64,000 nucleotides of DNA from Thermoanaerobaculaceae bacterium (GTDB taxonomy: Bacteria > Acidobacteriota > Thermoanaerobaculia > Multivoradales > UBA5704), in NCBI GenBank assembly GCA_963712665.1, contig CAVQIV010000010.1, positions 135,291 through 199,290 on the forward strand. The letters are read 5' to 3'. Numbering within the stretch: the first letter of the stretch is position 1; every line of letters begins with the position of its first letter. The translations under genes were made by a program, and so were the position numbers. Shown piece by piece: positions 46,430-63,697 of this stretch. The notes beneath the pieces were generated by a model. It had not been told where the DNA came from, did no database searches, and saw only the letters and a program-made list of their open reading frames with translations.

Positions 46430-47521
46430 CTACCGCACCCTCTTCCGCCGGTTCCGGATGTAGTCCGCCAGGATGAACTCCCCCAGGTTGTAGGGTGAGG
46501 CGAAGTAGGCGCGGCCGCGGTTGATCTGGGTCAGCTTCTCCACGAACTGGGTGAGCATGGTGTCCGTGGCCAGCATGAAGGTGGTGATGACCACCTTCTG
46601 GCGGCGGCAGAGGTCGGCTTCCTCCAGGGTGAGGTTGACGATCCGCATGTCGAGGCCGAAGGGGTTTTTGTAGATCCGTCCGCCTTCGGTGATGGCCGAG
46701 GGCTTGCCGTCGGTGATCAGGAAGATCTGCTTGTTGGGCTGCTTCTGGCGGGCCAGGATGCTGCGGGAGAGCTGCAGCGCGTCGCGGGTGTTGGTGTGGT
46801 ACGGCCCGGCCTGGATATAGGGGATCTCGGAGAGGAATACCTGCTCGGCCTGATCGCCGAAGAGCACCACTGAGAGGTCGTCCTTGGGGTACTTGGTGGT
46901 GATCAGCTCGGTCAACGCCAGGGCCACGGTCTTGGCCGGCGTGATGCGGTCCTCGCCGTAGAGGATCATCGAGTGGCTGATGTCGATGGCCACCACCGTG
47001 GCGCAGGAGGTGAGGTGCTCGGTCTCATAGACCTCCAGGTCCTCCTCCATGAGATCGAACTCGTCGCTGGAGTTCCTCTTGAAGGCGTTCTGGAGCGAGC
47101 GCGCCGAGTCCAGGAGGTGGATGTCGTCGCCGAAGCTGTAGGGGCGAGTCTCGGGGAGGCGCTCGATCCCCTCGCCGGAGGCGCGGATGGGGTGGTAACC
47201 CGCGCCGGAGCGCCCGAGGGTGGAGAAGATCTCCTCGAAGGCACTCTTGCGGACGCGGCGCTCGCCGCCGGTGGTGAGCTGGAGGCCGCCCTCGCTGTCC
47301 TGGCCCACGAGGTTCTGCTCCTGGAGGCTGGCGAAGAAGGCTTCGAGGTCGATGTTCTCGGGGATGTGCCCCTCGGACTGGAGGTAGCGCATCCACTCCA
47401 TGGCCTCCTCGACGTCGCCGCCGGTCGCCAGCACGAGCTGGTTGAACAGGCGCAGGAGGTCCAGGCCCGCGAGGAGGGCCTTGATGAGCTCGGGGTCGAG
47501 ATAGAGGTACTGATGCCGCAT
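46430..47521 (-). CDS. VWA domain protein
   Basis: MIDAS DISHSM, TNT, ITDGKP. Confidence 0.92.
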
Positions 47522-47539
47522 GATGCTCCCGTTCCGGCT

Positions 47540-49051
47540 CTAGTTGACATCCCCCCGGTCCCGTCCCCCTGAACCCCGCCGCGGCTTCAGGAGCTGGAAC
47601 TTGACCATCTCCTTGTAGCTGATCTGGCTGTCCAGGTCGGCCCGGGCGAGCTTCAGGTGCTGGTGCAGGCCTTCGAGGACCATCTCGGCGGCCAGAGCCC
47701 GTTCCTCACGGGTGGAGCCGAGGCGCACGACCAGATCCCGGAGGCCGGGGACGCGGAAGATCTCCTCCTCGTAGTCGGCGAACGGCTGCTCGTCGGAGAT
47801 CGTCACCGTGTTGCCATCCGCGAACCAGCGGATCATGCGGGCGTAGGGTCCCTTGTCGTCCTCGCCGCCGCTGCCGGTCTCCTTGCCTACCTCGGGGAAG
47901 CGGGCGTCGAAGGCCTTGCGGACGGCCTGGCCGATGAGCTTCCGGGCCACCACTTCGGCACCCTGCTGCTCGCCCTCGTAGACCATCTCCACCTTGCCGG
48001 TGATGGCGGGCAGCAGCATGTGCAGGTCGGCGAGGCGCGGATAGACGGGGCTGTCCTTGGTGGCCAGGGCCCGGCGCTCGAGGTTCGAGGCCAGGAGCTC
48101 CAGGGCCGAAATGGCCACGCGGGCTGAGACGCCGGAGGACTGGTCCACCAGGTCGCTCGCGCGGGCCGCCAGGCTGATCTCCTCGACTAAGAGACGGACG
48201 TCCTCGGGGATCACGACGCTCGCCACGTCGCGCTCCGTCCACGCCTCCTGGCGGGTGATGTCGGCCGCGATGGTGGCGTCCGGCGGGTAGTGGGTGAGGA
48301 TCTGGGACGAGATGCGGTCCTTGAGCGGCGTGATGATGCTGCCGCGGTTCGTGTAGTCCTCCGGATTGGCGGAGAAGCACATGAGGATGTCGAGCGGGAT
48401 GCGCACGGGGAAGCCGCGGATCTGGAGGTCGCGCTCCTCCAGGATGTTGAACAGGCCCACCTGGATGCGGGGGGCGAGGTCCGGAAGCTCATTGATGGCG
48501 AAGATGCCGCGGTTGGTGCGCGGGATGATGCCGAAGTGGATCACCTCGGGGTCGGCGAAGGTGAGCTTGCGCGTCGCCGCCTTGATGGGATCGATGTCGC
48601 CCAAGAGGTCGGCGATCGAGACATCCGGCGTCGCCAGCTTCTCGTTGTAGCGCTGCTCGGCCGTCATCCACTCGACGGGAGCGTCGTCGCCGGCGTCCGC
48701 GATCAGGCGCTGACCCGGAATGGAGATGGGGGCGAGCGGATCGTCGTTGAGCTCCGAGCCCGCGAGCACCGGCACCTCGGGATCGAGGAGGGTGACGAGC
48801 GAGCGCAGGATGCGGGTCTTCGCCTGGCCGCGCAGGCCGAGCAGGATGAAGTCGTGGCCGGCGAGGAGCGCATTGACCACGGACGGGATCACCGTGCGGT
48901 CGTAGCCGAGGATGCCCGGGAACAGGGGGCCGCCGCTCTTCAGGCGCGAGCGCAGGTTGTCGCGGATCTCCTGCTTGATGGAGCGGGGCCGGTAGCCGGC
49001 CTGCCGGAGCTGGCCTAAGGTCTTGATCTGGGACGTGGGACGGGAAAGCAT
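47540..49051 (-). CDS. AAA+ ATPase (Mg-chelatase subunit-like)
   Basis: GLRGQAKT, INELPDL, SANPEDYTNRG; coupled to the VWA gene. Confidence 0.92.
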   Translation of the reverse strand: MLSRPTSQIKTLGQLRQAGYRPRSIKQEIRDNLRSRLKSGGPLFPGILGYDRTVIPSVVNALLAGHDFILLGLRGQAKTRILRSLVTLLDPEVPVLAGSELNDDPLAPISIPGQRLIADAGDDAPVEWMTAEQRYNEKLATPDVSIADLLGDIDPIKAATRKLTFADPEVIHFGIIPRTNRGIFAINELPDLAPRIQVGLFNILEERDLQIRGFPVRIPLDILMCFSANPEDYTNRGSIITPLKDRISSQILTHYPPDATIAADITRQEAWTERDVASVVIPEDVRLLVEEISLAARASDLVDQSSGVSARVAISALELLASNLERRALATKDSPVYPRLADLHMLLPAITGKVEMVYEGEQQGAEVVARKLIGQAVRKAFDARFPEVGKETGSGGEDDKGPYARMIRWFADGNTVTISDEQPFADYEEEIFRVPGLRDLVVRLGSTREERALAAEMVLEGLHQHLKLARADLDSQISYKEMVKFQLLKPRRGSGGRDRGDVN

Positions 49052-50019
49052 CAGTCGTGAAGCTCCTGGAGCCAGCGCTCGGCGTCGATGGCCGCCTGGC
49101 AGCCGGTGCCGGCGGAGGTGACCGCCTGGCGGTAGATGGGATCCATGGCATCGCCCGCGGCAAAGACGCCGTGGACGCTGGTCTTGGTCGTCGGTTCCTG
49201 GACTTTGATGTAGCCCACGTCGTTCATCTCCAGCTTGCCCTTGAAGATGGCGGTGTTGGGCTGGTGGCCGATGGCGTAGAAGACGCCCTGGGTGGGATAG
49301 AGGCTGTCGAGCTCCGTGCGCTTGTTGTGCAGCTTGGCGCCGGTGACGCCGCCTTCGCGGGTGCCGACGATCTCGGTGACGACGGAGTCCCAGATCCAGG
49401 CGATCTTGGGATTGGCGAAGGCGCGGTCCTGCATGATCTTCGAGGCGCGCAGCTCGCGCCGGCGGTGGATGACGGTCACCTTGCTGGCGAACTTGGTCAG
49501 GTAGGTGGCCTCCTCCATGGCCGAGTCGCCGCCGCCGATGACCACGATCTCCTTGTCGCGGAAGAAGAAGCCGTCGCAGGTGGCGCAGGCCGAGACGCCG
49601 TAGCCCATGAGCTCCTGCTCGCCGGGGGTGTTGTCGAGCTTGGCGGTGGCGCCGGTGGCGACGATCAGGGCGTCGCACCGGTAGGTGGCCTCGTCGGTGC
49701 GGATGGTGAACGGCCGCTTCTCGAAATCCACCTCGACGGCCTGCTCGAACTTGACCTTGGTGCCGAAGCGCCGGGCCTGCTCGCGCATGCGGTCCATGAG
49801 CTCGGGCCCCAAGATACCCTCGGGGAACCCGGGGAAGTTCTCGACGTCGGTGGTGATGGTGAGCTGCCCGCCGGGCTGGTTGCCCTCTAACACCAGGGGC
49901 GCCAGGTCAGCCCGGGCGGCATAGAGCGCGGCCGTGAGACCGGCCGGCCCCGAGCCCAGGATGATGACCCGGTGGTAGTTGTCGGCGTTGTGATGCTCCG
50001 TCGCTGAGGTAGCTGACAT
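49051..50019 (-). CDS. trxB: Thioredoxin reductase
   Basis: GSGPAG, GGQL, CATCDG, GGGDSAMEEA, FAAGD, YRQAVTSAG. Confidence 0.97.
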   Translation of the reverse strand: MSATSATEHHNADNYHRVIILGSGPAGLTAALYAARADLAPLVLEGNQPGGQLTITTDVENFPGFPEGILGPELMDRMREQARRFGTKVKFEQAVEVDFEKRPFTIRTDEATYRCDALIVATGATAKLDNTPGEQELMGYGVSACATCDGFFFRDKEIVVIGGGDSAMEEATYLTKFASKVTVIHRRRELRASKIMQDRAFANPKIAWIWDSVVTEIVGTREGGVTGAKLHNKRTELDSLYPTQGVFYAIGHQPNTAIFKGKLEMNDVGYIKVQEPTTKTSVHGVFAAGDAMDPIYRQAVTSAGTGCQAAIDAERWLQELHD

Positions 50020-50181
50020 TCGGGGCGGTCCCCTCTCCTGAAAAGGTCTGGAAATCACCTGCGGAGCGGCAGCCAGGTGAGCCCCGGCAGTATATCGCGG
50101 CCTTGGGCTCCCCCACGCCGCACACGGCGGCGTAAGGAGTACAACGTAGTGGGCGGGAGGGGGCATTCCGGGGGGGAACGC

Positions 50182-50748
50182 TCATGCGCAGGCGTTCAGC
50201 CCGGGCACCGCCTCCTCCAGCATCTCCCGCATCGCCTTGAGCCCCAGGCGGATGCGCGATTTGAGCGTGCCGAGCGGCAAAGCGAGCCGGCTGGCTGCTT
50301 CCTCGTAGGTCAAGCCCTGGAAGTAGGCCATCTCGATGGCCCGGCGTTGATCGGGGTTGACGCGGGTGAGGGCCTGGCGAAGGGTGATGCGCAGGTCGCG
50401 GGATTCCCTGTCCGGCTGCGGCAGGCGCTGGTCGTTCAGCTCCTCGGACTCGCGGTTGCGGTCCGAGCGGCGCCAGAGGTCCACGAGCTTGTTGCGGGTC
50501 AGGGTGTAGAGCCAGGCGGCCACGGCGCCGCGGTCCGGCCGGTAGGTGGCGGCTTTGCGCCAGACGGTGGTGAAGACCTCCTGGGCCACGTCCTCGGCCA
50601 AGCAGCGGTCGCCGCACAGGCGGTGGGCGTAGGCGATCACCGCGCCGGCGTGGCGCAGGTAGAAATCATGGAAGGAATCGAGATCTCCGAGGGCGGTGGC
50701 CGCCAGCAGGTCTTCGTCGGGCTCGGGGGTGATGTGATGATCGTTCAC
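50182..50748 (-). CDS. ECF sigma factor (second)
   Basis: GGAGGAGG RBS; AEDVAQEVF, WLYTLTRNKLVD, GTLKSRIRLGL. Confidence 0.92.
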   Translation of the reverse strand: MNDHHITPEPDEDLLAATALGDLDSFHDFYLRHAGAVIAYAHRLCGDRCLAEDVAQEVFTTVWRKAATYRPDRGAVAAWLYTLTRNKLVDLWRRSDRNRESEELNDQRLPQPDRESRDLRITLRQALTRVNPDQRRAIEMAYFQGLTYEEAASRLALPLGTLKSRIRLGLKAMREMLEEAVPGLNACA

Positions 50749-50775
50749 GCATCCTCCTCCATCAGATCGGAAGGG

Positions 50776-50807
50776 GTAGATCCGGCCGAGGGGAGGATGG
50801 GTTAGCG
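50776..50807 (-). promoter_or_regulatory. Putative ECF promoter CGCTAACCC-N15-GGATCTAC upstream of the second sigma
   Basis: Identical boxes and spacing to 51038-51069. Confidence 0.7.
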
Positions 50808-50831
50808 ATCGGTGGCGGCCCCTGAAACGAG

Positions 50832-50862
50832 CCGGCCCGGCCGCAGGGAGCAGCCGGGCCGG
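50832..50862 (-). terminator. GC hairpin after the small peptide gene
   Basis: CCGGCCCGGC/GCCGGGCCGG inverted repeat. Confidence 0.5.
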
Positions 50863-50885
50863 AGGGTGCGAGACCGACGAAGAGC

Positions 50886-50996
50886 CTACTTCTCGGTCGG
50901 CGGGGGCGGACCGGTCCAGGGTGGATTCCGGGTGTCGACTGGACCGTCCTGGAACGACTTGAGGTCGAGCTCGGGGTACTGGGTGCGGGGATTCAT
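50886..50996 (-). CDS. 36-aa peptide MNPRTQYPELDLKSFQDGPVDTRNPPWTGPPPPTEK
   Basis: Strong AAGGAGGA RBS, own promoter motif, downstream hairpin, ATGA overlap with the CHAT stop. Confidence 0.7.
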   Translation of the reverse strand: MNPRTQYPELDLKSFQDGPVDTRNPPWTGPPPPTEK

Positions 50997-53980
50997 CGTG
51001 TCCTCCTTGATAGACCGCGGGGTACGGGTTCTTGATCGTAGATCCCGTTGACGCGGATCGGGGTTAGCGGTTGGCCGGCTCGCCAGTCTCCTTGCAGGAT
51101 GAAGCCTGCCCAATAGTATGGCGCTTCCCGCCCCGGTTGGCGGCGCAGGCCGTCCTGGGCGGCGCGCAGGGCGGCCGCGGGCTGGCCGTGCTCCAGCATC
51201 TCGCGATAGAAGCGCTGCATCAGCTCGGCCGTGGCCTCGTCGTCCACCTCCCAGAGGCTCACCAGCACGGCGCGGGCGCCGGCGTACTGGAAGCCGCGAG
51301 TGAGCCCCACCAGACCCTCGCCGCGGATCTCCTGGCCCAGAGCCGTGCTGCACGCCGAGAGGACCACGAGGTCGGCGGCCCAGCGCAGGCCATAGATCTC
51401 GTGGGCCCACACGAAGCCGTCCTCACTCCGCGGCCTGCCGTGCTCGTCCACTTGGGAAAAGATGAGCTTCGACAGCTCCGGATGCTCGGTGTCGATCTCG
51501 CCGTGGGTGGCGAGATGGACGATGCGGTAGCCCGCGAGCTTGCCGCTCAGCACCACCTCGCGGCTGGCCGCGAAGCCGAGGGCGGCGAGCCGCTGGTCCT
51601 GGGGCACCAGATCCTGCAGGGCTTCCGCCTCCTTGCTGGAGTAGGAAAGGCGTTGGAAGCTGTCCGTGTTGAACACCGGATCAGCCACCACCGCCAGGGT
51701 TCCGGGGGCGCTCCTGCGGCCGGCGAGCTCGCGGCGGGCCACGGCCAGGGCGGAGGCGGAGGGGGAGATCACGACCTCATGCGCGGCCACGAGCGGCTCG
51801 GACGAGCCTGGAATGGGGAGCGCCGCGAAGGGGAGATAGAAGAGGGCGCCGTCCGGCACGATCAGCAGGCGCTTGCGTCCGAGGAGCCCCGCGACCGGCT
51901 GCAGGAGGAGATGGGAGAGCTCGTCCTGAGAATCCGCGGCCGGGATCCGCGCCAGAGACCGATGGCTGCGCTCCAGCCGCTGGTAGCCGCGCCGGGCCGC
52001 CTCCTCGATCGTTGCGCGCCCCGGCAGCGGGAAGACGGCGAGATGGTCCGGCGTGACGGCCCAGACGAAGCTCCTCTCTTTTCCCAGATGGTATTCGAGG
52101 AGCAGGGTGTCGGCGTCCAGGATCTGGCGCTGGATCTCCGGCACGCTCGAGGGACGTCCTTGAGTGAGGGCGGCATAGGCGGGGCTCGCCTGCCGCAGCT
52201 CGGTCTGGGCCCGCTCGGAATTCGCGAGCGCCTGGCGCAGCGTCCGTTCGGCGGCCGCTTGCTGCTCGCTGGACGCCCTCGCGTTCTGGAGCCTCCAGCG
52301 CGCGCGATCGGCCTCGTTGACCTGGCGGTCGGCCTCATCCACCCGGGCGAGGAGAGTGGGATCGACGCCGCGCCGCAGGTCGGTCCTGGATTCCGCCAGC
52401 AGGTCGAGCAGACCGCGCGCCCGTGCCCTCTCGCTGGCTGTCAGGGCCTCGTCGACGCGGTGCATCGCTACCAGCAGGTCCACTTCAAAAGCGTAGAGCT
52501 CCTGGTTGCGGACCTGGAACGCGGTGCGGATCTCGTGGCTGGCTGAGGTGCCGCGCAGCGACTCGGCCTGTACGATGCCTGCCTGGATGGCCTCCCGAGC
52601 GCCGGCGAGGTCGCCGAGTCTTCTCCGGGCGCGAGCCAGGCCGAGCCGGGCAAAGGCCGCGGTGGCACGATCGCCAAGAGCCGAGAGACGCGGCAGCACC
52701 TGCCCATAGACCTCGATGGCCTCCTTGGGACGGTCCGCCGCGACGTCGGCCCAGGCCACGTTGGCGAGGGCCACGGCCTCGTCGGGCCCATCCCTCAGGT
52801 CATGGAACAAGGTGCGGGCCTGGGCGAAATACAGCCCCGCCTGTCGCCAGTCGCCGAGCAGGATGTAGACGCAGCCGAGATCGTTGAGCGTCACCGCCTG
52901 GCTGCGGCGATCCCCGAGATGCTGCTCGAGGGCGAGGGCCTGCTGGAGGTTTTCGATCCCCTTCGGGATCTGCCCTGCCCGGCTGTAGGCGTTGCCCATG
53001 GAGTTCAGGGCTCGCGCCTGTTCCTTCTCGTTGTTTTCCGCCCTGAAGAAGTCGAGAGCGAGTTGGAGCTCATCCAGCCCCTTCTGCGGCTCACCGAGGG
53101 ACTGATAGAGGTCCCCGAGGCTGGAGCGGGTGATCGCCTCCTGTCTCCGGTTTCCCACCGCGCGCCAGAGGTCTTGGGACTGCTGGAAGTGAGCGATAGC
53201 CTTGCCGTTCTCCCCCAGCGCCCGGTAGGCCATGCCAAGGTTCGCGAGGGTCGTAGCCTCGGTCGATCGCTCGCCCAGGCGCTGGCTCAGGGCGAGAGCC
53301 TCGCGGTAGGACACCATGGCCTGGCGGACCTGGCCCTGGAACTTGTAGATCACGCCGAGGAGGTTCAGCGTGTACCCCGCTTCGTGCTCCCAGCCGAGGG
53401 CGCGGAAGAGGGCCAGGGCTTCCTTCGCCCGGTCGGGATCGGAGCCGATCTTGGCCAGAGAGTAGAGGGTCGCGGCCTCTCGCCCGCGCTCGCCCGCAGC
53501 GCGAAAACCGGACAGGGCCTGGCGGTAGGCCGCTGAGGTGAAGAGACGCTCGGCGGCAACCCGGGCGCGGTCGCGGGGTTGGGCGGGGCGCAATGCCGCC
53601 AGCCGCACCTCGTATTTTCCCGCGGGCTCCAGGGAGCCGGAGGGCCGGACCTCCAGCCGATACCGCCCGGATCGCTCCGCGATCACCGGCACCGGCTCGG
53701 CGCCCCAGGCGCCGAAGAAGCTGTCGGAGGTGGCGAGCGGGCGGCCGTCCGGATCCTTCACGGTCACGGCGACATCGATCCCACGCTGATCCACGGCGAG
53801 GTCGGCGAAGGTGCCCGCGGGGAGGTCCAGGAGATAGTCGTAGGTGGCGAGGGTGGACTCGACAACGGCGCCGGCTCGGGGCGGGAGAACCCGTGACGGG
53901 ACAGCCGGCGGCGCCGGCTTCTGGCCGTGGACGGCGAGCAGGGCGCACAGGGCGAGCCCGACGGCTGGATGGGCCCTCAT
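50993..53980 (-). CDS. Exported TPR-CHAT (caspase-like) protease
   Basis: Hydrophobic N-terminus, PPC-like beta domain, TPR array, IVPDGAL, VHLATHG (His), VVLSACST (Cys), SLWEVDD, YYWAGF. Confidence 0.93.
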   Translation of the reverse strand: MRAHPAVGLALCALLAVHGQKPAPPAVPSRVLPPRAGAVVESTLATYDYLLDLPAGTFADLAVDQRGIDVAVTVKDPDGRPLATSDSFFGAWGAEPVPVIAERSGRYRLEVRPSGSLEPAGKYEVRLAALRPAQPRDRARVAAERLFTSAAYRQALSGFRAAGERGREAATLYSLAKIGSDPDRAKEALALFRALGWEHEAGYTLNLLGVIYKFQGQVRQAMVSYREALALSQRLGERSTEATTLANLGMAYRALGENGKAIAHFQQSQDLWRAVGNRRQEAITRSSLGDLYQSLGEPQKGLDELQLALDFFRAENNEKEQARALNSMGNAYSRAGQIPKGIENLQQALALEQHLGDRRSQAVTLNDLGCVYILLGDWRQAGLYFAQARTLFHDLRDGPDEAVALANVAWADVAADRPKEAIEVYGQVLPRLSALGDRATAAFARLGLARARRRLGDLAGAREAIQAGIVQAESLRGTSASHEIRTAFQVRNQELYAFEVDLLVAMHRVDEALTASERARARGLLDLLAESRTDLRRGVDPTLLARVDEADRQVNEADRARWRLQNARASSEQQAAAERTLRQALANSERAQTELRQASPAYAALTQGRPSSVPEIQRQILDADTLLLEYHLGKERSFVWAVTPDHLAVFPLPGRATIEEAARRGYQRLERSHRSLARIPAADSQDELSHLLLQPVAGLLGRKRLLIVPDGALFYLPFAALPIPGSSEPLVAAHEVVISPSASALAVARRELAGRRSAPGTLAVVADPVFNTDSFQRLSYSSKEAEALQDLVPQDQRLAALGFAASREVVLSGKLAGYRIVHLATHGEIDTEHPELSKLIFSQVDEHGRPRSEDGFVWAHEIYGLRWAADLVVLSACSTALGQEIRGEGLVGLTRGFQYAGARAVLVSLWEVDDEATAELMQRFYREMLEHGQPAAALRAAQDGLRRQPGREAPYYWAGFILQGDWRAGQPLTPIRVNGIYDQEPVPRGLSRRTR
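51038..51069 (-). promoter_or_regulatory. Putative ECF promoter CGCTAACCC-N15-GGATCTAC upstream of the peptide
   Basis: Identical boxes and spacing to 50776-50807. Confidence 0.7.
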
Positions 53981-54068
53981 GGGTGAATCATTCTCCTCGC
54001 TGGGCTTGAGTCTCCATCCAATACTACGTGGGCGCGAGGGATTCGGGATGAAGGGTCCTGCGAAGTCG

Positions 54069-54824
54069 TCAGGGCTTCTGCCGGGGCGCCTCGATGGGCA
54101 ACCGATACTCCGCGATCGGTTTTTCGGACGCGCCCTGGCCCGTGTTGCCGAAGAGGAGGAGACGGTAATCCCCCGGTCCGAGCTCATCCCGCGACAGCTC
54201 CAGGGTCACGCCGTCAAGCTTCTCCTTGAATACCAGCCCTTGAACCTCCAGGACCTTGCCGCCGTCCTTACGGACGATCTCCGCTCGATATTGAGTGGCT
54301 CTGGCCGGCGGCCCGGGGAGATACAGGACGAGGATGAGACGCCGGGAATCATCCGCGGAGATCCCTTCGCCGAGGGATCCCCTCCCACCCCGGGTCGTGG
54401 AAGGGGAGAGCTGGATCACGGACGGATTGGCCTGCGGCTGGGAGAGCTCGCTGACGGTGCGTTGAAGCGAAGCCACCCAGGCCGAGAGGCCCACCGTAGC
54501 GACCAGCAGGGCGGCGGCCAGGGCCTGGAGCCAGCGTGGCGATCTCGAAGATCGGGAGGGCCGGCGCAGGGGCACGACGGGGGCCGGGGGCTTCTCCTGC
54601 GTCTCCTGATGGATCTCTCCCTGGATGCGCCCCCACAGCGCCTCCTGATCCGCCGGGGAGAGCGAGCCGGCGCCGAAGCCGGGATCGGCCAGGCCTGCGA
54701 GATCGAGGAGCAGGTCGGAGCATTCCCGGCAGGAGAGGAGGTGATCCTGGAGACGCTGCTCCTCGTCCGCGGTCAGCTCGCCTGCGTGGTAGGCGGCCAG
54801 GGTTTCGGGCTCCGGATGGCTCAT
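54069..54824 (-). CDS. zf-HC2 zinc-binding anti-sigma factor with TM helix and extracytoplasmic domain
   Basis: HPEPETL...HLLSCREC; TM WLQALAAALLVATVGLSAWV; ATGA overlap with sigma. Confidence 0.9.
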   Translation of the reverse strand: MSHPEPETLAAYHAGELTADEEQRLQDHLLSCRECSDLLLDLAGLADPGFGAGSLSPADQEALWGRIQGEIHQETQEKPPAPVVPLRRPSRSSRSPRWLQALAAALLVATVGLSAWVASLQRTVSELSQPQANPSVIQLSPSTTRGGRGSLGEGISADDSRRLILVLYLPGPPARATQYRAEIVRKDGGKVLEVQGLVFKEKLDGVTLELSRDELGPGDYRLLLFGNTGQGASEKPIAEYRLPIEAPRQKP

Positions 54825-55447
54825 GGCGCCTCCTCGATCCCGGAGATCAGGTCCTGGAAGTAGGGGCCCAGCTCCTCGCGCAGCCGCCGCCGGCCTTGAG
54901 CCAGGTGGACCTTGACCGTCTCCGGCGACAGCCGCAGCAGCACGGCGATCTCCTTGTAGCGGAGCTCCCGGTCGATCCTCAGGACCAGGCACTTCCGCAT
55001 CTGCTCCGGCAGCTTGTCGATGGCCTGACGCAGGAGGCGCGAGCGCTCCTTGCTCAGCATCTCCTCGCTCGCCGTGGGCACGTCCGTTGCCGCCAGGGTC
55101 GCCATCGGTCCCAAGTCCTCCTGATCTCCCTCCAGGGCCACTTCCGTCGCTCCCCGCTTCTCGGCCGTGCCCCAGCGCAGCCGCTTGCGGTAGGCGTTGG
55201 TGGCGATCTTGAACAGCCAGGTCTCGAAGCTCGCGTCGCGGCGGAACGCTTCGATGCCCCTATAGATCCCGATGAAAGTCTCCTGGGTTAGGTCGAGGCA
55301 ATCCTGGTGCGGGAAGCCTCGCCGGGAGAAGAAATGGTAGAGCCGGGGAGAGTAGAGGTCGAAGAGGCGACGGAAGGCCGCGTCGCGCAAGGATCGCGTC
55401 GGGCCGGTCTGGAGCTGCTCGATGAGGTTCTGGATGGGCTCCGCCAT
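54821..55447 (-). CDS. ECF sigma factor (first)
   Basis: DLTQETF, FETWLFKIATN, YKEIAVLL, TVKVHL. Confidence 0.92.
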   Translation of the reverse strand: MAEPIQNLIEQLQTGPTRSLRDAAFRRLFDLYSPRLYHFFSRRGFPHQDCLDLTQETFIGIYRGIEAFRRDASFETWLFKIATNAYRKRLRWGTAEKRGATEVALEGDQEDLGPMATLAATDVPTASEEMLSKERSRLLRQAIDKLPEQMRKCLVLRIDRELRYKEIAVLLRLSPETVKVHLAQGRRRLREELGPYFQDLISGIEEAP

Positions 55448-55454
55448 CGCCGTC

Positions 55455-56634
55455 TCAAGGTATGCCCGTAGGATACCCCATCCCACCCGCTCGAGGCCCG
55501 CCATAGCTCACGGAATGTCCCCAGGCGATGAGCGGTCTCTCGAAGAGCCGCCACGAGACCTCGGCCAGGGCGAGGGTCGCCGCGACCGCCGCCGCCGTGA
55601 TCGCCATTTCGGCGGGGGTGCCGAAGCCGGGAGGGCGGCCCAGGATTAGGCCGTGGGCCAGGCCGTTGACCGTCTGGTGGAGGAGATAGACGCAGTAGGC
55701 CCGGCCGCCGAGCCACCGCAGCCAGCGGTGGCGGACGAGCCAGGTCACCGGTCCTCTGGGCTCGGTGACGGCGAGGAGCAGCAGCGAGCCGTAGAGCACG
55801 GCGAGGACGGAGAACATGAACGGGCTGCCCTCGAACCCGTAGTGCCGGAAGAGGCAGAGGCCCCCGAGCCCGGCGAGGAAGACGGCGAGGATGCCATAGA
55901 GCAGAGGCCGCGAGCCCTGGATGGCCCGCCGCCAGCGCTCCTGCCGCAGGGCCCAGGCGCAGAGCACGCCCAGCAGCAGGGAGTCGGCCCGGCAGTGGGT
56001 GAGGACGATGGTGTCGAAGTACCCCGCGGGACCGGCGAGGACCCGCCACAGGGGCGCGGCGAGGCCCACGGCCGCGAGCGTGGCCGGCAGCCAGCCGGTC
56101 GGGATGAAGCGGATCAGGAGGGGCAACGCGAGGTAGAACTGCTCCTCGACGGCCAGCGACCAGGTGATGGCGAGGCCGATGGCGACCGAAGGAGCTCTCG
56201 TGCGCCATCACCAGGTTCTGGGTGAACGTGGCATAGGACCAGACCGGCAGCGGATCGCGGAAGATCGGCGCCAGGACCGGGGAGGCCGTGAAGGCCGGGA
56301 CCGCGGCCCGCAGCAGGAAGAACGCGCCCAGGAAGAGGAAGTAGAGCGGCAGGATGCGGCAGAAGCGGCGGGCGTAGAAGGCCTGGAAGTAGCGGGGAGC
56401 CGTGCGCCGGTCGAGCAGGATGCCGCCGATCAGGAAGCCCGAGAGCACGAAGAAGAGATCCACGCCGCTCCAGGCGAGACGCAGCGACCGCCAGGTGAGC
56501 TGGGCTAGGGGAGCGGGCAGGGTCTGGAGCGGCATGGCCACGTAGTGCCAGGCGAGGACCAGCAGGATGGCCAGTCCCCGGATGCCGTCCAGCTCCGGAA
56601 TGCGTCCGGAGGCTTCCTCGTTCGAGTGTGACAA
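55455..56634 (-). CDS. Acyltransferase 3 (OafA-like); frameshift near 56180
   Basis: [34 protein letters not shown]; second frame [11 protein letters not shown]...YLLH...SWRLFERP. Confidence 0.88.
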
Positions 56635-56696
56635 GGTGGGGGCCAGAGTATCAGAGCAGCGCATATACACGATCCCCGCGGAGGCGGACTTTTTTC

Positions 56697-58077
<1,381 letters not shown>

Positions 58078-59434: not shown

Positions 59435-62400
59435 CTACTGGTTGTGCGGCACGGTCACCGTGACGTTCTGGCTGCTGGAACGTCCCGCCTGGTCGGTGCA
59501 CGTGATGGTGATGGTGTAGACGCGGCCGCTGCCGTTGCCGGAGCGCTCGGAGCGCAACTGCACGTGGTGGTTGTCCACGATCACCCAGTCGGGGTCCGTG
59601 TCACCGTCGCCGGTGCCGTTGATGGGCTCGTTGCTGGCCACCGAGAGGCCGCAGGTGATGGCCGTGGAAGCCGAGCAGTTGTCGGACGTGGTGTAGGACA
59701 CCGTCACGTCGTCGTACTTGTGGTTCGGCGGCCACAGCGAAGTGGGAGACGCGGCGGCGCCGGTGATCGCCGGCCCCTGGACGTCGTTGACGGTGATGGG
59801 GAAGCTGCACGTGGTGGTGGAGCCGCTCTGGCGGGTGGCCGTGCAGACATCCGTGGTGGTCCCCAGCGGGAAGACCGAGTTGCTGGGCGGCACGCAGGCC
59901 AGGGTGCCGCACGAGCCGGTCACGCCCGGGAAGGGGAAGGTGACCGCGGCCTGGCAGACGTTGGGCTCGGTGCCGGCCGTGATGGGCGACGGGCAGGCGA
60001 GCGAGCACGCCTGGTTGCAGCAGACCGGGTCCGAGGTCTGGAAGTTGAGGCTCCAGCCGCCGGCGACGTTGCCGATGTCGCCACCGGCGTCGTCGGTGAC
60101 GTAGAGGCTCCAGGTGCCGTTGGCATTGACGCCCGAGAAGTCGGCCAGGGCCGAGCCGTAGGGGGCTGCCGGGGCCGGGGCCGGGAAGGTGTCGCCGGTG
60201 CCGGAGTTGGTGGGCCGGAAGGTGCCGGAGACGATCTGAGCCGAAACCGGCAGGGACGGCCCGGCGTCGTCGAAGGTCAGGGTGTTGTTGATCAGGTCGA
60301 AGCTGCTGCCGACGTCGGACATCAGCAGGATCTTCTGGCCTCCCGGTCCCACCAGCAGGACGTCGAGGTCGCCGGGGAAGGTGTGGTTCATGCGGGTGAG
60401 GGTCACCGTCACCTTGTTCACCGTGCCGGCGATGCCGGAGACGCTGATGGTGGACGGGTAGGGGCTCGCCGCTCCCGAGGTGATCGTGGGAGCGCCCGCC
60501 GGGATGGTGATCGAGGTAGCGTTGGCGAACGGTCCATAGGTGTTGCCGGCCGTGGTGCCGAGACGCAGGGGGAAGCTGATGTTGCCGAGGTCGAAGGGCC
60601 CGTCCTGCAGGTGGAGCGTGGCCGTGACGGTGCCGCCGCAGGTGCCCGCGGGCACGAAGCTGAAGGTCCGTGAGACGGCGGGAGCGCCGGCCTGCACCAC
60701 GCCGTAGGTCTGCGGCGGCCCGGGCTGCTGCACGCCGCCGGTGGGCAGGAGGTTGGCCACCAGGTTGGTGGTGTCGCCGCTGCCGGCGTTGACCAGGGCG
60801 AAGTCCACCTTCACCGATTCATCGGGATCGATGGCGGTGTTGGCGGGGGAGCAGCTCTCAGCCGTGACCGCGGAGCCCGCTCCCTGGGTCACCGGCGTGC
60901 CGGGGACGCCGCAACAGACGAAGACGCGTCGCGAGATCTCGAGCTGGAAGCAGAACAGGGTGCCGACGTCGAGGTTGGCGGTGTCGGCAATGCGCAGCTT
61001 CCAGGTGCCCGCCGAGAGCTTGCCGTTGAAGGCCGCGAGGGCCTGCTCGGGCCGGAAGGTACCGGCGAACGGAGCGGTGGCCGAGGTGATGGAGGCCGCC
61101 GCGGCGTCGTCGAAGATGGTGGGCTGGCCGGAGCAGTCGTTGGCGCCGGCGCCGTAGTTGTCGTCGCCGCCGCCGTTGGCGGAGGACAGGTCGATGACCG
61201 TGCCATCCGGGCCCACGAGGCTGATGTTCAGGTCGCCGTCGAAGGTGTGGTTCAGGCGGATGCGGACGTTGACGTCCGCGACCACGCCGACGTCGGGCAC
61301 GTTGAGCGGCACGTCCACCGTGCTCAGGTCGGGCAGCGGTACGCTGAGGTTACCGCTGCTGGTGGTGGCGGAGAGCGAGAACGGATTGAGCTGGCCCAGC
61401 GAGAAGCTGTAGGTCACGGTGCCGAGATCGGTGGCGCCGTCCTGGAGGTGCAAGGTGGCGGTCAGAGTGCCGCCGCAGGTGCCGGCGGCGACGAAGGTGA
61501 ACGGCCGCGACACGGCGGGGCCGCCCACGGTGAGCACGCCGTAGGTCTGCGGCGAGCCGGGGGAGGTGACGCCGCCCGTGGCCAGCAGGGTGGCCACGAG
61601 GTTGACCGAGTCGGCTGTGCCGATGTTCGAGAGCGGCAGGCTCACGGTCACCGTCTCGCCCGGGTCGATGGCGCCGTTGCCGGTGCCGCAGCTCTCGGCG
61701 TTGATGGTGGCGGTGCCCGCCTTGAGGATGGGCCGGCCCACGAGGGCGAAGTTCTGGGTAACGGTGCCGCCCGTCGGCACGGTCACCGTCGCCGTGGCCG
61801 TCGAGTAGCCGGGCGCCGAGGCCACCATGTTGTAGGTGCCGGCCGGCACCTTCATGGTGTAGCCGCCGGTCAAGCCGGTGATGCGGGAGTAGCCGTTGGT
61901 GGTGGCCACCGTGGCGCCGGGGATCGGCGCGCTGGTCACCGAGTTGACCACTACGCCGGTGATCGTGCCGGTGGCCGCCGGGGTGCAGGAGGGGAAGGTG
62001 AAGCGGCCGATGCCGGTCACCCAGCCGAAGCTGCTGGTGGCGGCGCTGGCGGACGTGTAGTACTCGGTGGTGTACCAGAAGGTGCAGTCGTCGTCGGGGT
62101 CGACCGACAGGGCCGAGTAGTCGCCCCAGCGCGACTGGGTGGCGGTCTGGGCGCCGGTGCCGGCGATCAGCACCGTCTCACCCTGGAACAGGCCGCCCGG
62201 CGGGTCGGTCGAGAGGCGGCCGGCATAGCGGATGGACGGGAACGAGGTCAGGCTGGAGGCGCTATAGCCCACGGCGAGGTTGCCGCTGCCGTCCATGGCG
62301 GCGCTCGGCATCCAGCGCTCGAGGCCGTCGGCGGGGGCGAAGGTCGCCTGCTCGTTGACCGTGAAGGAGCCGCCCGGCAGGCTGCGCCGCAGCTCGTAGT

Positions 62401-63697
62401 AGCGGACGCCGGCCCGCAGGTTGGCCGGCGTCGTGGGCGCCACACCGCTGACGTTCACCGTGTGGCTCGCCACCAGCGACTCGTAGGTTCCGAAGTTGCG
62501 GTACTGGAGACGGAACATGAGCCGGTCCATGATCGCGTCCAGGAAGGCCGAGCTGGTGGCCGGCGGCGGCTGCTCGATGTCGTCGCGGCCCGTCACCGAC
62601 CGGGGGTCGAAGGCGGCCACGGCGAGGGGGCTGTCCGCCCGCTCGGCGAAGGTGGAGGCAGCCGGGGTGGCGAAGCTCGGCCGGAATTCGAAGATGCGCA
62701 GCGAGTCGAACGGGTGGGCCGGATCGGCGAACTCGTCGGCCGTGAAGTAGATGAAATAGCCCGGCGCTCCGGCCGGCGGCGGGGTCAGGCCGTCGAGGTC
62801 CGCGGGCAGCATGCCGCCGATGTTGGCGTTGCCGTTCTCGACGTCGAAGTAGATCAAGCCCGCCGTGGGATCGCCGGCCAGCATCTTGGCGCGGTCGAAG
62901 GCGAAGGCGCCGGCGCCGAGGAAGACGGTGCCCGCCTGGTTGAACTGGTTGTCGGTCATGTAATAGGCATCGGTCCACACACCGAAATGGGGATAGTCGT
63001 TGAACTTGTTGTTCGGCATCACGAAGTCGTACAGGTAGTAGGCCCCGGCGGGGTCCGACGTCTTCGAGATGGCGATGAGCTGATGGGTGTTGGGGTTGGC
63101 CAGCGTGCAGAACTGGCTCATCAGCCAGCGGTCCGCCAGGGGATCGTAGAGCACGATGGGATCGCCGTCGTTGCGGTTGGCGCACCCGCCGGCAATGGTG
63201 GCGAACAGGCTGCCGAGGGTCAGCTTGGCAGTCACCGGATTGCCCGCCTTGTCATAGACCCGGAACAGGTTGTTCACCATCTGCACGTAGTTGTTGGGGC
63301 CGATGTCGCCCACGGTGTCCGGAGGCATGACCCGGCCGCCGAAGGCCGCCGCGTCGTCGTCGCTTGAAAGGCCGCTGAAGAACAGCGACGGCGAGGGCAC
63401 GAGCGTGGCGGGCGCCGACACCTGGGCCACCGGGTCCTCGGTCGCGGGAGCGTCGGGCAGCTCCGAGCGGAAGATCTTCAACGGCACGATCTTGACTTCC
63501 GTCGGGCCTTCCGTGGGTTTGTCCTCGCTCGGCGGCAGGTCTCTCAGCTCCGGCGACACGCCGAAGGCCGCGGCCTGCGAGACCGTGGGACCCTGAGCGC
63601 GGACCGCGGGGGCGGCCAGCAGCAGGGCCGCCAGCCCGAGGACGAGCACGGCGGCAAGCCGGCTCTTGGCGGAGAAGCGGTCAACATCCATCCCCAT
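59435..63697 (-). CDS. Large secreted multidomain protein (N-terminal propeller-like domain, carboxypeptidase-regulatory-like, two proprotein-convertase P domains, HYR-like)
   Basis: GAGGAGGT RBS, signal peptide, PPDTVGDIGPNNYVQMVN, RWGDYS, NHTF.GDL twice, GTW.L...D, LWPPNHK. Confidence 0.9.
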   Translation of the reverse strand: MGMDVDRFSAKSRLAAVLVLGLAALLLAAPAVRAQGPTVSQAAAFGVSPELRDLPPSEDKPTEGPTEVKIVPLKIFRSELPDAPATEDPVAQVSAPATLVPSPSLFFSGLSSDDDAAAFGGRVMPPDTVGDIGPNNYVQMVNNLFRVYDKAGNPVTAKLTLGSLFATIAGGCANRNDGDPIVLYDPLADRWLMSQFCTLANPNTHQLIAISKTSDPAGAYYLYDFVMPNNKFNDYPHFGVWTDAYYMTDNQFNQAGTVFLGAGAFAFDRAKMLAGDPTAGLIYFDVENGNANIGGMLPADLDGLTPPPAGAPGYFIYFTADEFADPAHPFDSLRIFEFRPSFATPAASTFAERADSPLAVAAFDPRSVTGRDDIEQPPPATSSAFLDAIMDRLMFRLQYRNFGTYESLVASHTVNVSGVAPTTPANLRAGVRYYELRRSLPGGSFTVNEQATFAPADGLERWMPSAAMDGSGNLAVGYSASSLTSFPSIRYAGRLSTDPPGGLFQGETVLIAGTGAQTATQSRWGDYSALSVDPDDDCTFWYTTEYYTSASAATSSFGWVTGIGRFTFPSCTPAATGTITGVVVNSVTSAPIPGATVATTNGYSRITGLTGGYTMKVPAGTYNMVASAPGYSTATATVTVPTGGTVTQNFALVGRPILKAGTATINAESCGTGNGAIDPGETVTVSLPLSNIGTADSVNLVATLLATGGVTSPGSPQTYGVLTVGGPAVSRPFTFVAAGTCGGTLTATLHLQDGATDLGTVTYSFSLGQLNPFSLSATTSSGNLSVPLPDLSTVDVPLNVPDVGVVADVNVRIRLNHTFDGDLNISLVGPDGTVIDLSSANGGGDDNYGAGANDCSGQPTIFDDAAAASITSATAPFAGTFRPEQALAAFNGKLSAGTWKLRIADTANLDVGTLFCFQLEISRRVFVCCGVPGTPVTQGAGSAVTAESCSPANTAIDPDESVKVDFALVNAGSGDTTNLVANLLPTGGVQQPGPPQTYGVVQAGAPAVSRTFSFVPAGTCGGTVTATLHLQDGPFDLGNISFPLRLGTTAGNTYGPFANATSITIPAGAPTITSGAASPYPSTISVSGIAGTVNKVTVTLTRMNHTFPGDLDVLLVGPGGQKILLMSDVGSSFDLINNTLTFDDAGPSLPVSAQIVSGTFRPTNSGTGDTFPAPAPAAPYGSALADFSGVNANGTWSLYVTDDAGGDIGNVAGGWSLNFQTSDPVCCNQACSLACPSPITAGTEPNVCQAAVTFPFPGVTGSCGTLACVPPSNSVFPLGTTTDVCTATRQSGSTTTCSFPITVNDVQGPAITGAAASPTSLWPPNHKYDDVTVSYTTSDNCSASTAITCGLSVASNEPINGTGDGDTDPDWVIVDNHHVQLRSERSGNGSGRVYTITITCTDQAGRSSSQNVTVTVPHNQ

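Follow-up and report, generated by a model that had tools for sequence, protein, structure and literature searches.

We analysed a 64,000-nucleotide stretch of the genome of a Thermoanaerobaculaceae bacterium (assembly GCA_963712665.1, contig CAVQIV010000010.1, forward-strand positions 135,291 to 199,290; hereafter, the window) and describe a locus in it that encodes a sigma factor of the extracytoplasmic function (ECF) type (sig1), a single-pass membrane anti-sigma factor, a caspase-like protein with tetratricopeptide repeats (TPRs) and a CHAT domain (TPR–CHAT), a peptide of 36 amino acids and a second ECF sigma factor (sig2). An original prediction, made from the sequence letters alone, had proposed five co-oriented genes of these kinds, and all five open reading frames (ORFs) were found, each on the minus strand (Table 1). 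The host genome is 8.79 Mb in size, is spread over 27 contigs and is 81% complete.

Sigma factor, anti-sigma factor and TPR–CHAT protein

Both sigma factors belong to the ECF (group 4) branch of the sigma-70 family: they contain only regions sigma-2 and sigma-4 (Pfam), and sig1 and sig2 score 100 and 93 bits, respectively, against the sigma70-ECF model TIGR02937 (cut-off, 42.9). The Pfam matches of sig1 are to Sigma70_r2 (1.3e-14) and r4_2 (1.1e-12), and its nearest solved relatives are SigW (5e-18) and Escherichia coli RpoE (3e-17). Within the genome, each of the seven paralogues nearest to sig1 is a CHAT-linked sigma factor.

The start of the anti-sigma gene overlaps the stop of sig1 as ATGA, an arrangement noted in the original prediction; because the two genes are adjacent and overlap in this way, we predict that their products form a pair. 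The anti-sigma factor matches zf-HC2 in Pfam (7.7e-6; 26.3 bits against a cut-off of 22.2), and none of 21 homologues departs from its H-x3-C-x2-C motif (H28, C32 and C35). In the AlphaFold2 (AF2) model, helices at residues 6–45 make up the cytoplasmic zinc-finger domain. One hydrophobic membrane helix follows at approximately residues 98–120, and residues 135–244, predicted to be periplasmic, form a seven-strand Ig-like beta-sandwich (21-row alignment; mean predicted local distance difference test (pLDDT) score of 82). The motif, membrane helix and outer domain ascribed to this protein at the outset are thus all present in the alignment and the AF2 model. A profile of the family matches ChrR (1.5e-7), the N-terminal domain of DdvA (2e-4) and full-length DdvA (6e-3), and RslA was also matched; the protein is expected to bind zinc and its cognate sig1. 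The beta-sandwich gives only generic Ig and FN3 fold matches, and Atlas matches of the periplasmic domain are to unnamed Acidobacteriota clusters only. Outside the cytoplasm, conservation of the protein peaks in the juxtamembrane segment that directly follows the helix, a natural candidate for recognition.

The third protein has Pfam matches to CHAT (1.2e-69; 235 bits), TPR_12 (6.2e-32) and several further TPR families. Its AF2 model (18-row alignment; pLDDT, 86.4; predicted template-modelling score, 0.78) divides into a signal (residues 1–20), a beta-sandwich (29–132), around eight TPRs (135–475), a helical region (482–603) and the CHAT domain (613–964). With Foldseek, the best matches of the CHAT model in the Protein Data Bank (PDB) are Csx29 (3e-16), human separase (5e-15) and DdvA (3e-14); sequence searches of the PDB with the single protein or the whole-protein profile were swamped by TPR proteins, and the closest PDB sequences to the TPR part are LGN/Pins, which bind peptides in a groove. 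The catalytic residues, His826 and Cys877, do not vary across the aligned homologues (18 of 18), an argument for a working protease, its activity probably kept. The N terminus is hydrophobic, and in 17 of 19 homologues the hydrophobic stretch ends, as judged by eye, in a lipoprotein-type box; the copies in the window and in locus L033 are non-canonical. The signal-like N terminus (by eye) and the TPR array and intact His–Cys dyad (Pfam and alignment) that had been described for this protein were therefore all seen again. A prediction of the complex of CHAT residues 133–995 with anti-sigma residues 119–251, made with alignments, scored 0.00, below the mark and with no control pairs, and speaks neither for nor against binding.

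Linkage across genomes

Searches with iterated hidden Markov models identified around 70 sigma-70-family ORFs in the host genome, which also contains 54 CHAT matches. A sigma ORF lies within 6 kb of 26 of the 54 CHAT matches, compared with 9.3% of 5,000 random positions. The anti-sigma-family profile found 20 ORFs in this genome, 17 of which are within 3 kb of a CHAT ORF. Two layouts recur, sigma–anti-sigma–CHAT and CHAT–sigma–anti-sigma, and around a dozen paralogous modules each have their own sigma factor, anti-sigma factor and CHAT protein.

Of 61 genomes of the genus and order (G000 included), 51 have a full-length homologue of the anti-sigma factor; within the same genus, with G000 left out, all 36 do. 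Twenty order-level loci were fetched around the best anti-sigma matches, and neighbouring genes played no part in the choice. A strong CHAT gene is directly downstream on the same strand in 18 of these 20 loci; in the remaining two, the contig end cuts L034, leaving 415 TPR residues, and L045 has only a weak, distant match. In many loci the start of the CHAT gene overlaps the end of the anti-sigma gene by approximately 16–22 nucleotides (nt). A phylum-wide draw gave anti-sigma matches at 1e-8 in 66 of 201 genomes (64 of 199 without the unpublished genomes G083 and G108, which enter no other figure). Among 14 loci from other families and classes, a CHAT gene is present within around 4 kb in 13, and the last is cut by a contig end. 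The 13 loci comprise five with the order sigma–anti-sigma–CHAT, four with CHAT first (CHAT–sigma–anti-sigma) and four with divergent or convergent genes. These counts describe a pattern and do not amount to a statistical test, as related genomes are not independent.

Because the linkage outlasts shuffling of gene order and strand, it points to a functional tie rather than to hitch-hiking in an operon. No cas or defence genes were found among the neighbours between 45.9 and 63.7 kb of the window, and PADLOC gave only a generic TPR match on the locus. The gene neighbourhoods thus support the view that a sigma factor, an anti-sigma factor and an exported TPR–CHAT protein constitute a conserved functional unit that is independent of CRISPR. 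The synteny and the CRISPR independence expected in the original prediction both hold at the scales surveyed (genome, order and phylum), with gene order and strand varying.

Elsewhere in the genome, two full sigma–anti-sigma–CHAT modules lie one after the other on a single strand (C7:53311-63237). On the contig of the window, a CHAT ORF of 1,039 amino acids (C10:132378-135494, minus strand) extends over the window's first 204 bases; adjoining it (region 131262-135494) is an ORF with an Ig-like domain of the anti-sigma family, with no sigma gene nearby.

Table 1 Features of the locus and of its trxB flank, with positions in the window
Feature	Position	Strand	Basis
sig1, ECF sigma factor, 208 amino acids, RpoE/SigW-like	54821-55447	minus	Pfam
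Motif TAACCC-N-GGGATCTA in sig1 codons 53-62, candidate promoter, inside sig1, of the anti-sigma and CHAT genes	55263-55290	minus	
ZAS single-pass anti-sigma factor, 251 amino acids	54069-54824	minus	Pfam, alignment, AF2 model
TPR–CHAT caspase-like protein with export-type N terminus, 995 amino acids	50993-53980	minus	Pfam, AF2, Foldseek
Catalytic dyad, His826 and Cys877	51503-51505 (His826); 51350-51352 (Cys877)	minus	Homologue alignment
ECF-type promoter-like motif 5' of the small ORF, within the 3' tail of the CHAT ORF	51039-51066	minus	
Small ORF, 36 amino acids	50886-50996	minus	tblastn, orthologous loci
GC-rich hairpin with 13-bp core stem, then short T-rich tract	50832-50866	minus	Fold energy
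ECF-type promoter-like motif 5' of sig2	50777-50804	minus	
sig2, second ECF sigma factor, 188 amino acids, GTG start, SigK/SigE-like	50182-50748	minus	Pfam
GGAAT-N19-GTT motif in the spacer from sig2 to trxB, tentative sig2-type promoter	50141-50169	minus	
trxB, thioredoxin reductase	49051-50019	minus	Pyr_redox_2 1.5e-52

A shared promoter-like motif

Within the window, AACC-N15-19-GGATCTA has three matches, against 0.03 expected; they lie inside sig1, before the small ORF and before sig2. The strict form of the motif occurs 14 times across the genome, compared with 6 times in a reversed-sequence control. To follow the motif and the genes beyond CHAT, we used eight orthologous loci, with anti-sigma identities of 49–72% and sequence extending past CHAT. 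Counting the window, the motif precedes sig2 in 9 of 9 loci and the small ORF in 7 of 9. The motif is also present inside the sig1-family gene in 16 of 21 cases, including distant loci with no sig2 nearby.

The internal motif spans the sig1 codons for L-T-Q-E-T-F-x-G-I-Y, and its synonymous sites are unusually uniform. For Leu, 15 of 20 sequences use CTA, a codon that is otherwise rare, and CTA is not the top codon in the other listed conserved Leu columns. The Thr codon is ACC in 20 of 20, the sole fixed four-fold column, and the Gly codon is GGG in 16 of 17, compared with other Gly columns that are led by GGC. Third positions in the spacer of the motif are free to vary. The constraint on synonymous sites of the motif, with free third positions in the spacer, makes it a candidate promoter embedded in coding sequence. 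A precedent is the E. coli promoter rseA P3, a sigma-E-dependent promoter within rpoE that transcribes rseABC (PMC8595263).

Upstream of sig1 itself, the orthologous loci (9 of 9) show by eye a TAT(C/G)NT box at a distance of approximately 25–35 nt from the start; we treat it as a lead only. In the closest paralogous module (C26:1165796-1171100), the motif occurs twice just after CHAT, before ORFs of 89 and 156 amino acids, and the N terminus of the 156-amino-acid ORF resembles, by eye, those of ORFs 3' of CHAT in loci L042 and L050. As these motif copies precede other small ORFs, each module seems to have its own output genes. A variant motif, TCACCC...GTCT, was sought after the CHAT genes of other paralogous modules and none was found.

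The small proline-rich peptide

The ORF of 36 amino acids has the strong ribosome-binding site AAGGAGGA that the original prediction described, and its start codon and the CHAT stop share an ATGA. This overlap is a peculiarity of the window and L033, in which the CHAT ORF continues for around 28 codons beyond its usual ...LQGDWR end (50993-51080, minus strand) and passes the promoter-like motif to reach the ATG of the small ORF; the added tail is disordered in the model. CHAT stops earlier in the other orthologues, and there the promoter-like motif is intergenic.

The peptide is hydrophilic, rich in Lys and Pro, and has no hydrophobic leader or signal peptide. At the same position, tblastn detects it in L033 (1e-21), L035 (3e-17), L039 (3e-7) and L040 (6e-5), and an ORF of 27–58 amino acids with a ribosome-binding site occupies the spacer between CHAT and sig2 in 8 of 8 orthologous loci. 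Seven of the eight peptides end in PW-x-(G/D/P/S)-PPPP; L037 deviates. As judged by eye, the small ORF aligns across loci and the flank past its stop does not, and the invariant C-terminal half carries synonymous changes. Similar ORFs occur 3' of CHAT in the distant loci L043, L044 and L052. A profile of 12 peptides retrieved four representative clusters, 44–56 amino acids in length, among 1.84 billion proteins, and an Atlas search with the peptide gave no match. On this conservation, we take the small ORF to be a real, conserved gene for a proline-rich peptide. A proline-rich small ORF follows 3 of 30 strong CHAT ORFs in the genome (5 of 600 controls) and none of 13 distant phylum loci; the peptide is thus restricted to a subset of modules and is not a general part of them.

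Because the peptide has no export signal and its gene has its own sigma-type promoter motif, it more probably acts in the cytoplasm, as an output or in feedback, than serves the periplasmic protease as substrate or ligand. The original prediction had put forward the roles of output, substrate and feedback signal, of which output and feedback stand. Directly after the small ORF is a hairpin (-47.4 kcal/mol; z-score, -3.2) that is likely to terminate the transcript running from sig1 to the small ORF. A consensus scanner did not call the hairpin at 50832-50866; comparable hairpins with T-runs, clearer than that in the window, were seen by eye in L033, L035, L037, L039 and L040.

The second sigma factor and trxB

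The second sigma factor matches Sigma70_r2 (Pfam; 1.7e-19), is 24% identical to sig1 and has R. sphaeroides RpoE, followed by Mycobacterium tuberculosis SigE and SigK, as its nearest solved relatives. The gene next after CHAT is sig2 in every orthologous locus (8 of 8) and in none of the 11 more-distant loci. In the window, trxB follows around 160 nt 3' of sig2 with no anti-sigma gene, in agreement with the earlier statement that sig2 has no anti-sigma factor of its own; trxB adjoins sig2 in 6 of 8 orthologous loci, and sig2 is an orphan in all 8. As an orphan, sig2 would be under transcriptional control alone. Given that one ECF-type motif precedes both the small ORF and sig2, the cascade proposed in the original prediction is plausible.

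Immediately after the sig2 stop, a GGAAT-N19-GTT motif is kept in the window, L035, L040 and L041; a genome-wide scan for GGAAT-N-GTT gave 11 matches, compared with 4 in a reversed control. A TATACT-like box lies around 60 nt 5' of trxB and is kept in several orthologous loci. The trxB gene may have two promoters, one of which is of the ECF type.

Genomic setting

The neighbouring genes are trxB and genes for a VWA protein, a serine dehydratase, a ferritin and an acyltransferase. The ferritin and serine dehydratase genes are conserved on the side of the module opposite trxB, and, because the flanking genes are conserved, the module appears to sit in the core chromosome and not in a mobile or defence island. 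On the 3' side of trxB (46430-49000, minus strand) are a VWA-domain protein and a protein of 486 amino acids with no Pfam match, in a position kept in at least four orthologous loci. Farther away, at 59435-63697 (minus strand), is a large, secreted protein of 1,420 amino acids with a signal-like N terminus, CarboxypepD_reg and two proprotein-convertase P domains.

Several genes are broken up. An acyltransferase (Acyl_transf_3) just 5' of sig1 is split over two frames (N-terminal part, 55288-56670, minus strand; C-terminal part, 55455-56126) and is either a pseudogene or an assembly frameshift. The L-serine dehydratase is likewise split over two frames on the plus strand (SDH_beta and the start of SDH_alpha, 56628-57692; the remainder of SDH_alpha, 57451-58077), and several paralogous CHAT genes in the genome appear fragmented. 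That all of these genes are broken up suggests indel errors in the assembly, and gene ends should accordingly be read with care.

Comparison with known systems

In Myxococcus xanthus, DdvA is a zinc-binding anti-sigma (ZAS) factor with a periplasmic TPR–CHAT part, and its cognate ECF sigma factor is DdvS (PMC11506125 and PMC6061681). The authors propose signal-induced CHAT autoproteolysis as the site-1 step before RseP, and call validation pending (PMC11506125); the idea in the original prediction that CHAT cuts the anti-sigma factor therefore has a precedent. The locus and the DdvA–DdvS system have in common an ECF sigma factor, a zinc-finger anti-sigma domain, a single membrane helix and a periplasmic TPR–CHAT part with a His–Cys dyad. 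However, DdvA carries all its parts on one polypeptide, whereas here the anti-sigma factor and TPR–CHAT are the products of two genes with a signal peptide between them; TPR–CHAT is separately exported, mostly as a lipoprotein, and the anti-sigma factor has an Ig-like periplasmic domain of its own. Anti-sigma factors of the DdvA type control a neighbouring CBASS or CRISPR–Cas defence island, unlike this locus, near which there are no CBASS or CRISPR genes. A genome of the present kind has around a dozen modules, and at this locus a small peptide gene and a second sigma factor come in addition. The three helices at residues 655–700 of the CHAT model from the window may correspond to a three-helix motif that is absent from DdvA. 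We conclude that the locus is a variant of the DdvA kind, split over two genes and multiplied in the genome, with a cascade and a peptide output as additions.

Among longer proteins, looking for a natural fusion of anti-sigma factor and CHAT gave a sole candidate, P0001, of 1,221 amino acids with zf-HC2 and CHAT. We rejected it as a frameshift chimera because its first Ig-like strands are followed by out-of-frame junk and then by an internal lipoprotein signal. This protein could pass for a DdvA-like fusion in surveys of domain architecture.

Full-text literature searches pairing CHAT with ECF or anti-sigma, which covered main texts, brought up essentially one system, DdvA, and no description of the split form. 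In its main text, the ECF reclassification paper makes no mention of CHAT (PMC7826278). By comparative genomics, ECF sigma factors have been noted beside a different type of caspase system, which is cytoplasmic (PMC8195603).

The order of sigma factor, single-pass anti-sigma factor and periplasmic partner, and the logic of regulated intramembrane proteolysis, are shared with rpoE–rseA–rseB, as is a promoter within the sigma gene that re-makes the negative regulators, which is a candidate only in the present case (PMC8595263). Here, however, the anti-sigma factor is of the ZAS and not the RseA type, the third gene encodes TPR–CHAT and not RseB, and the operon itself would, as we propose, supply the site-1 protease.

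The likeness to separase and securin lies in the TPR-like and CHAT architecture and in the idea of a small disordered partner alongside. Separase is eukaryotic and cytoplasmic or nuclear, whereas the peptide here, having no export signal, is unlikely to meet a periplasmic protease. In type III-E CRISPR systems, the craspase of Cas7-11 and the TPR–CHAT protein Csx29 reportedly cleaves Csx30, a binder of an ECF-like sigma factor. The present system would resemble craspase in that a TPR–CHAT protein controls a sigma factor through a cleaved inhibitor, and Csx29 is the best structural match; however, craspase is cytoplasmic and RNA-guided, whereas the system here is extracytoplasmic with a membrane ZAS anti-sigma factor as the inhibitor. 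No Cas7-11/gRAMP, Csx30 or Csx31 was found among the neighbours at 45.9–63.7 kb of the window.

Proposed mechanism and alternatives

As the best explanation of the whole, we propose a three-part envelope-signalling module in which CHAT acts in trans as the site-1 protease, and we put the chances of this at about even. At rest, the anti-sigma factor would hold sig1 at the membrane, as its family membership suggests. A periplasmic cue, bound by the TPR or the beta-sandwich part, would activate the His–Cys protease, which we infer to clip the anti-sigma factor on the periplasmic side, probably at or near the juxtamembrane segment. A site-2 protease of the RseP type, together with cytoplasmic proteases, would then release sig1; an RseP-like M50 protease is encoded in the genome (1.4e-65). 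Free sig1 would be the reader of TAA(A/C)CC-N16-GGATCTA at the three places at which the motif is positioned and conserved. The copy within sig1 would re-make the anti-sigma factor and CHAT without extra sigma factor, providing negative feedback like that of E. coli rseA P3, and the copies before the small proline-rich peptide gene and before sig2 would drive outputs. The second sigma factor would relay the signal to further genes, probably including trxB, and the peptide would be a cytoplasmic output or feedback factor. A broader form of the proposal, which we regard as possible but rather doubtful, is that Acidobacteriota have a large and diversifying set of such two-piece periplasmic receptors, a dozen or more per genome, in each of which the lipoprotein TPR–CHAT is a ligand-gated site-1 protease acting in trans on its own ZAS anti-sigma factor, and that sig1 here activates sig2 and a PW-PPPP peptide with feedback on the cytoplasmic side.

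Several points weigh against the trans-protease proposal. The autoproteolysis proposed for DdvA itself awaits proof (PMC11506125). The juxtamembrane segment is without the invariant Asp or Arg that marks a caspase- or separase-type site, and the ZAS domain could sense redox by itself. There is no sigma gene within 6 kb of 28 of the 54 genomic CHAT matches; CHAT proteins are therefore not tied to sigma factors as a rule. The embedded motif could partly reflect amino-acid conservation, and its tentative assignment to sig1 rather than sig2 draws on its presence in loci with no sig2 nearby. Finally, assembly frameshifts, with at least two neighbouring genes split, leave the details of gene ends less certain.

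A different account, which we think fairly unlikely, makes TPR–CHAT a mere regulated output of sig1 and its anti-sigma factor, an exported protease or effector with no role in sensing, with the sigma factor released by another route such as a conventional site-1 protease or redox at the zinc finger. ECF operons often carry target genes beside the sigma/anti-sigma pair, the candidate internal promoter would make CHAT expression sigma-dependent and, as noted, more than half of the genome's CHAT genes have no sigma gene nearby. However, the linkage persists through CHAT-first, divergent and convergent arrangements; each of around a dozen paralogous modules keeps its own sigma factor, anti-sigma factor and CHAT, the anti-sigma and CHAT genes overlap, and separate output genes with the same motif sit after CHAT. 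The same two parts are, moreover, one protein in DdvA (PMC11506125).

It is improbable, in our view, that TPR–CHAT is instead a periplasmic partner that does not cut the anti-sigma factor, either an RseB-like guard or co-sensor that sits on the Ig-like domain until a ligand releases it or a cleaver of a third protein, a fragment of which would be the actual signal. This account draws on the gene order, which mirrors rpoE–rseA–rseB (PMC8595263), and on the peptide-binding habit of TPR arrays, here with LGN/Pins as the closest PDB sequences; it is set against the invariance of the catalytic dyad in every aligned homologue, and the module has no third conserved periplasmic gene in the loci surveyed across the order and phylum. 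Least probable, and by our estimate very unlikely, is a reading of the small ORF as a translated leader in which ribosome stalling on poly-proline tunes transcript stability or read-through into sig2: runs of 4–7 prolines do lie near the stop codon, with the hairpin directly after, but the residues preceding the run (DGPVD...PW) stay the same as amino acids while their codons change synonymously, a promoter motif past the hairpin belongs to sig2 itself, and the hairpin begins approximately 25–30 nt past the stop codon, beyond a stalled ribosome.

Significance

The natural two-gene version of this system makes the question of whether CHAT cuts its own anti-sigma factor directly testable, which the proposal is not for DdvA, because the signal there is unknown and the protease and substrate are one chain. 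The motif within the sigma gene, kept at synonymous sites, would be a clean case of overlapping coding and regulatory information, and it offers a handle on the regulon, including a possible sigma-to-sigma cascade and a small conserved peptide. If the trans-protease proposal is true, caspase-like proteases would take a place alongside DegS, Prc and signal peptidase in site-1 cleavage for ECF sigma factors, adding a new class of site-1 protease to regulated intramembrane proteolysis, and a function would be in hand for the numerous CHAT genes found in Acidobacteria and comparable soil bacteria.

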